From Methanotrichaceae archaeon (GTDB lineage: Archaea > Halobacteriota > Methanosarcinia > Methanotrichales > Methanotrichaceae), in contig JBGQAL010000006.1 of NCBI GenBank assembly GCA_041494285.1, positions 3,057-27,056 of the forward strand: 24,000 bases of DNA, given 5' to 3'. Position numbers and translations under genes: made by a program. Position 1 is the first letter of the stretch. Each line of letters starts with the position of its first letter. Under the pieces are notes generated by a model. That model saw only the letters and a program-made list of their open reading frames with translations, had not been told where the DNA came from and did no database searches. This document shows, piece after piece, positions 13,327 through 13,832 of the stretch.

Positions 13327-13536
13327 GTGCCTTATTTGAATAAGCACGAAGCACAACATCTTCTAGAACACTGGATAGAGCATAACGTCAGCCACAGCCG
13401 CTCGTTTCGTGAAAGGGCCAAGCAGATCGAAGAGATAAGCAGGCAGGCAGCCACAGAGATAAATCAGGCGGCTGACCTGATGGATAAGTGCACAGATATG
13501 CTAAAAAAAGCAAAAGATGATCTTGAGGTGAGATAG
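13327..13536 (+). CDS. Small helical protein with an N-terminal five-histidine ladder (unknown family)
   Basis: 69-aa ORF with a GTG start after GGGGAG. His residues fall at positions 7, 11, 15, 19 and 23 (H-x3-H repeated). The rest looks coiled-coil and contains a single Cys. Confidence 0.5.
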   Translation: MPYLNKHEAQHLLEHWIEHNVSHSRSFRERAKQIEEISRQAATEINQAADLMDKCTDMLKKAKDDLEVR

Positions 13537-13832
13537 TGGAAATGGTTTACTTTTACAGCACAGAAAACGAGAAGGCTATGAAGAAGGTACTGGACGACGA
13601 CCTGTTCGATGAGATTGTACCTACGATCGTGGAATGCAAGTTCATGGGCATAAACAAGGATGGCTTTTGCATGTACATCAAGGTCAGGGACGAACTAGCC
13701 CTCAAGGCTAAGAAGATGCTCTCCGAGTCGCCTGCCAAGGAGCTGACGGGCGAAGAGGGAGAGGCAGTGATCAAGGCATTCAGGGAGCAGGCCGAGGCTG
13801 CTGAGGCGGGGATGGGAGCGCTGTTTGGGTAA
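13536..13832 (+). CDS. Small acidic protein ending in a ribosomal-stalk-like tail (...AEAAEAGMGALFG), unknown family
   Basis: 98-aa ORF. The start is GTG 13536, which overlaps the upstream TAG by 1 nt, or ATG 13542; both follow GAGGTGA. The tail was read directly from gctgaggcggggatgggagcgctgtttgggtaa. Confidence 0.55.
   Translation: MEMVYFYSTENEKAMKKVLDDDLFDEIVPTIVECKFMGINKDGFCMYIKVRDELALKAKKMLSESPAKELTGEEGEAVIKAFREQAEAAEAGMGALFG

Follow-up and report, generated by a model that had tools for sequence, protein, structure and literature searches.

The window, a 24,000-nucleotide stretch of DNA from a Methanotrichaceae archaeon (assembly GCA_041494285.1, contig JBGQAL010000006.1, positions 3,057 to 27,056 of the forward strand), carries a short gene encoding a 98-residue protein that follows a GGPP synthase gene and a 69-aa ORF. 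The features of this region are the following:

13327..13536 (+), the 69-aa His-ladder ORF, translationally coupled to the gene downstream, its stop overlapping the GTG start by 1 nt
13525..13531 (+), Shine-Dalgarno sequence GAGGTGA, 4 nt before the GTG start
13536..13832 (+), the gene for the 98-aa stalk-tail protein, with a GTG start and a TAA stop
13536..13748 (+), residues 1-71, a predicted ferredoxin-like alpha/beta body (strands 2-8, 30-33, 43-49; helices 9-19, 22-27, 52-63)
13749..13829 (+), residues 72-98, a predicted long C-terminal helix ending in the stalk-type tail (E87-A-A-E-A-G-M-G-A-L-F-G98)

Translation of 13536-13832 gives 98 residues ending ...EAAEAGMGALFG-stop. The GTG start is supported by the homologues, which begin M-E-[LM]-V-Y, and by the Shine-Dalgarno sequence, which matches the 3' end of archaeal 16S rRNA. 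A word-indexed search identified 135 close relatives; at least 120 of these share 55-98% identity, nearly all are exactly 98 aa long, and those with names come from Methanotrichaceae or Methanothrix. The gene, which is present in a single copy in this genome, is therefore real, and the genome is that of a Methanothrix relative. The earlier note had drawn attention to the likeness of its C-terminus to the factor-recruiting tail of the archaeal ribosomal stalk protein aP1 (L12), and this observation is confirmed. The tail is not a chance feature. Among 23,848 stop-to-stop frames of at least 50 aa in all six frames of the whole genome, four end in a loose G-phi-[GSA]-x-[LIMV]-F motif, and only two have the acidic run followed by G-phi-G-A-L-F-G: the canonical aP1 and this ORF.

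The protein is not aP1. A whole-genome search with the Pfam profile PF00428 (Ribosomal_60s) at E up to 10 returned only one gene, on another contig (C228), which encodes a 103-aa aP1 ending ...EGLGALFG directly behind L10 (aP0) and L1. The statement of the note that the gene lies outside the L11-L1-L10-L12 operon is thus correct. The protein itself has no Pfam hit at E up to 1, and scans of it and of ten distant relatives against Pfam and NCBIfam gave nothing significant. BLASTP against the genome's own aP1 aligns only GMGALFG with GLGALFG. Similarly, a profile-profile comparison (hhalign) of the family with 27 aP1 sequences from the same genomes aligns only the last 20 columns, family columns 81-100 with aP1 columns 92-111 (probability 78%, E 1.9e-5).

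Two AlphaFold2 models, built from 20-sequence and 85-sequence alignments (pLDDT 87.6 and 87.9), have the same topology. The predicted body is beta-alpha-beta-beta-alpha and is followed by a helix spanning residues 72-97, with confidence falling to 52-58 over the last ten residues. The tail therefore continues a confidently predicted helix, and the sequence contains no low-complexity, Ala/Glu/Lys-rich hinge of the type that precedes the tail in aP1. Fold searches (Foldseek PDB and VIA wide) returned only generic ferredoxin-like or ACT, PII or KH-type matches, with a best Z of 7.2 and no E below 0.01, and gave no functional lead. A profile search of PDB sequences returned only noise (uS15m and vimentin at E of 0.1 or more), and the ESM Atlas only unnamed archaeal clusters. 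The note had considered a divergent stalk paralogue as one alternative, and the similar lengths (98 against 103 aa), the shared tail and the ME-x-VY start of both proteins might suggest a full-length aP1 paralogue that still dimerises and binds aP0. However, no PF00428 match was found, the hhalign alignment is limited to the tail, and the predicted body has beta strands, whereas the N-terminal domain of aP1 is helical (PDB 3A1Y). This possibility is effectively excluded.

An exhaustive profile search of 1.84 billion cluster representatives identified 164 representatives of 50%-identity clusters at E of 0.001 or better. Most are 95-110 aa long and aligned end to end, and the protein of the window thus belongs to a family defined by full-length similarity and a C-terminal A-A-x-G-phi-G-x-[IL]-F-G. 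A search for fused forms of 190 aa or more found none, although this is weak evidence. In an alignment of 85 members, at 21-58% identity to the protein of the window, the only invariant columns are G92, G94 and F97. Position 93 is hydrophobic in 100%, position 96 is Ile in 77% and otherwise hydrophobic (L, V, M) in nearly all others, and G98 is 91% conserved and sometimes followed by one to four extra residues. The family consensus is an acidic run followed by A-A-x-G-[F/M/L]-G-x-I-F-G, whereas the aP1 proteins of the same genomes read: acidic run, [A/G]-[A/M]-x-G-L-[G/A/S]-x-L-F-G. The two logos agree over 16 positions.

The closest known system is the C-terminal domain of the archaeal stalk proteins aP1 and aP0, such as Pyrococcus aP1, whose last 18 residues bind aEF1A, aEF2, aIF5B and ABCE1 (PMC6125642, PMC6791870). 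The aP1 18-mer forms a helix on ABCE1 through L103, L106 and F107; F107S has the largest effect, and deleting G108 has none (PMC6125642). These residues correspond to M93, L96, F97 and G98 of the protein of the window, and the conservation pattern of the family follows the same order of importance. Both tails are located at the extreme C-terminus, have hydrophobic residues at the three contact positions and a dispensable or variable final Gly, and are predicted helical with low confidence, as expected for a segment that folds on binding. The tails of eukaryotic P1/P2 and uL10 (P0), ending ...MGFGLFD, are the same kind of docking peptide, with G-F-G-L-F close to the G-F-G-x-I-F of the family. 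However, these are ribosomal, multi-copy and carried on flexible hinges, whereas the family described here is archaeal and free-standing.

One rival explanation is that the tail is a convergent short linear motif for a different partner, such as a chaperone, an AAA+ unfoldase or another enzyme, and that its likeness to the stalk tail is coincidental. Short hydrophobic C-terminal motifs are common docking elements, and the family tail is consistently distinct from that of aP1, with F or M at -4 in 59 of 85 and I at -1 in 62 of 85, against L at both positions in 27 of 27 aP1. The tail is never identical to the genome's own aP1 tail in the 29 genomes where both were read, and no covariation between the two was seen, each keeping its own consensus. 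Conversely, the similarity covers 16 positions, including the acidic run and the A-A-x-G frame and not only three hydrophobic residues; DPANN aP1 tails (EEAAAGLASLFG) are almost the same as family tails (EESAAAGFGSIFG); and in this genome the motif occurs on nothing else but aP1. We consider this explanation unlikely, but a different partner remains possible.

The family is widespread. Source names include Methanotrichaceae, Methanosarcinales MAGs, Methanocellaceae and Methanocellales, Thermoplasmata, Thermoplasmatales, Methanomassiliicoccales, Aenigmatarchaeota, Micrarchaeota, Norongarragalinales, Diapherotrites and "Halobacteria archaeon" MAGs; outside the three phyla sampled below, presence rests on these names only. 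Every product name seen is "hypothetical protein", except for one JGI record that reads "uncharacterized membrane protein". In a sample of 301 genomes of the phylum of the window (Halobacteriota), 42 have the gene, and presence is nearly all-or-none per family (families are numbered here with f and genera with g): 7/8 in the family of the window, 15/15 in f12 (Methanocellaceae, as inferred by matching sequences to named cluster members), 7/7 in f16, 4/4 in f18 and 4/4 in f7, against 0/37 in the sister family f2, 0/46 in f6 and 0/38 in f13. The family was thus not found in many archaea with the same translation factors, which counts against the explanation favored below. It was found in 99 of 121 sampled genomes of the phylum of genome G301 (an Aenigmatarchaeota record) and in 119 of 121 of the phylum of G303 (a Micrarchaeia record), or 118 of 120 without the unpublished genome G458. 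As the genomes of these two DPANN phyla are only 0.5-1.5 Mb, such retention argues for a core function. Many members of the Micrarchaeota phylum (genomes G431-G546, for example G440, contig C36, 135622-135858, and G534, contig C1, 881444-881686) match the profile only from position 9-22 onward and sit in open frames of 125-190 aa, suggesting a subfamily with a different or extended N-terminus. Likewise, the member in a "Halobacteria archaeon" MAG (locus L040, 6998-7498 (-), same place as locus L073) sits in an ORF called at 166 aa, within an open frame of 342 aa, and may have an N-terminal extension or a misplaced start.

A canonical aP1 is also present in all 30 other family-positive genomes tested. 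The note had named two outcomes that would count against its reading, a tail not conserved among orthologues and a protein that is the genome's only aP1; both were examined, and neither was found. We also considered that the protein might replace aEF1B (EF-1 beta, PF00736), the small nucleotide-exchange factor of aEF1A, which is of similar size, belongs to the same general alpha/beta sandwich class and, as the family protein would be, is a small soluble partner of a translation GTPase. This was rejected: there is no sequence match, aEF1B did not appear among the fold matches, and a separate aEF1B is encoded on contig C46 of this genome and is present in 43 of 48 genomes tested, whether or not they have the family.

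No gene partner is conserved across phyla, but within lineages the neighbors are often translation genes. Ribosomal protein S8e lies directly upstream, with a 1-12 nt gap, in three Micrarchaeota loci. Phe-tRNA synthetase alpha and beta and a Trp/Tyr-type synthetase lie around the gene in f9, f16 and f18, and a convergent S4-FtsJ methyltransferase gene abuts or lies near it in several f7 and f12 loci. In Aenigmatarchaeota, the CCA-adding enzyme or a UPF0020 methyltransferase lies 3-32 nt upstream, and aIF2 alpha or Nop5 a few genes downstream. As translation genes are frequent in small genomes, this association is supportive and not decisive. In 28 Aenigmatarchaeota loci (L047, 3099-3518 (+); L066, 6550-7098 (+); L083, 6344-6943 (+); and 25 others), an unnamed coiled-coil protein of 133-224 aa, with a conserved PLFVK[IL]DKY motif, a variable Pro-rich N-terminus and no Pfam or NCBIfam match, is encoded co-directionally one to four genes downstream.

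The His-ladder ORF is conserved directly upstream of the gene in six other Methanotrichaceae genomes, at 64-68% identity and with a gap of 9-13 nt. All five His (i, i+4 spacing) and one Cys are kept, a second Cys appears in genus g2, and no Pfam family passes threshold for this ORF. The linkage to GGPP synthase is not kept, and no homologue of the ORF was found beside the gene in any other lineage. The two-component module proposed in the note is only partly supported: the two-gene module is real but specific to Methanotrichaceae, and the suggestion of metal responsiveness has no support beyond the His ladder itself.

A second rival explanation is that the protein is an unrecognized ribosome-bound protein, an auxiliary stalk element whose body would bind the large subunit near the GTPase center and whose tail would add or replace a factor-recruiting arm, especially where aP0 has lost its own tail. 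The aP0 of this genome (locus L001, 1888-2784 (-), contig C228) is 298 aa long and ends ...APVKEK, without the stalk tail, whereas other Methanotrichaceae genera keep it (...AAGLGSLFG). Tail-less aP0 is seen in most family-positive lineages: this genus (g1 of f1), f9, f12, f16, f18, f28 and 17 DPANN genomes. Most family-negative lineages have a tailed aP0: f2, f5, f6, f8, f11, f19, f20 and one genus of f1. There are exceptions both ways, as f1 genera g2 and g3, f3 and f7 have both the family and a tailed aP0, and f10, f14 and f17 have neither. At the lineage level this gives 8:4 against 3:8 (Fisher p = 0.10), which is only a trend. The S8e linkage and the near-universal presence in two DPANN phyla also speak for this explanation. 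However, removing the aP0 tail is reported to have only a slight effect (PMC6125642), and no similarity of the body to any ribosomal protein was found by sequence or fold search. We regard this explanation as improbable, although the trend keeps it alive.

The interpretation of the note, a free, non-ribosomal carrier of the stalk tail, is partly supported. Our analysis establishes that the gene is real, that it belongs to a family of which the tail is the most conserved part, that the similarity to aP1 is limited to this tail, and that a separate aP1 exists; that the tail binds translation factors, which factor it binds, and whether the consequence is competition, delivery or sequestration are inferred from sequence and predicted structure alone. 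On this evidence, the explanation that we favor, with little more than even confidence, is that the gene encodes a member of an old, single-copy archaeal family of soluble adaptors or regulators that would engage aEF1A, aEF2, aIF5B or ABCE1 off the stalk. In this view, the peptide most likely folds into a short amphipathic helix and inserts M93, L96 and F97 into the hydrophobic pockets that accept aP1 L103, L106 and F107. As there is no flexible hinge, the body would sit right next to the bound factor and could add specificity or block a surface. The consistent use of F/M and I where aP1 has L and L suggests a preference for a subset of partners. However, aP1 presents its tail in many copies on a long hinge, whereas here the tail follows a structured helix on what may be a monomer, so effective competition with the stalk would need high abundance or high affinity.

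A further possibility, which we advance only tentatively, is that the family is an unrecognized, ancient component of archaeal translation, soluble or ribosome-associated, that uses a private version of the stalk tail to capture a specific factor (aEF1A, aEF2, aIF5B or ABCE1). It may have become important where aP0 lost its own tail, so that part of the factor-recruiting function of the stalk moved to a separate gene. The stalk tail is the universal handle by which archaeal and eukaryotic ribosomes recruit translation GTPases and ABCE1, and a conserved cellular protein carrying it on a non-ribosomal body would be a new kind of player in translation, whether competitor, chaperone, delivery adaptor or auxiliary stalk arm. 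Full-text literature searches found the known aP1 work but no description of a free-standing archaeal protein with this tail. A 2026 study of archaeal hibernation factors notes that about half of the Archaea lack the factor HibA and infers that further hibernation factors remain to be found, without mentioning this family (PMC13324472).

Two other genes accompany the family in one Aenigmatarchaeota clade. A stand-alone 84-aa protein (locus L060, 7714-7968 (+), and 7 related loci) resembles EF-Tu/EF-1 alpha domain 2 (PF03144, 27.7 bits, just below the 30.3-bit cut-off) and is encoded two to four genes downstream of the stalk-tail gene. A protein of 472-507 aa with a hydrophobic N-terminus and no Pfam match (L060, 3514-4944 (+), and 9 related loci) is conserved upstream.
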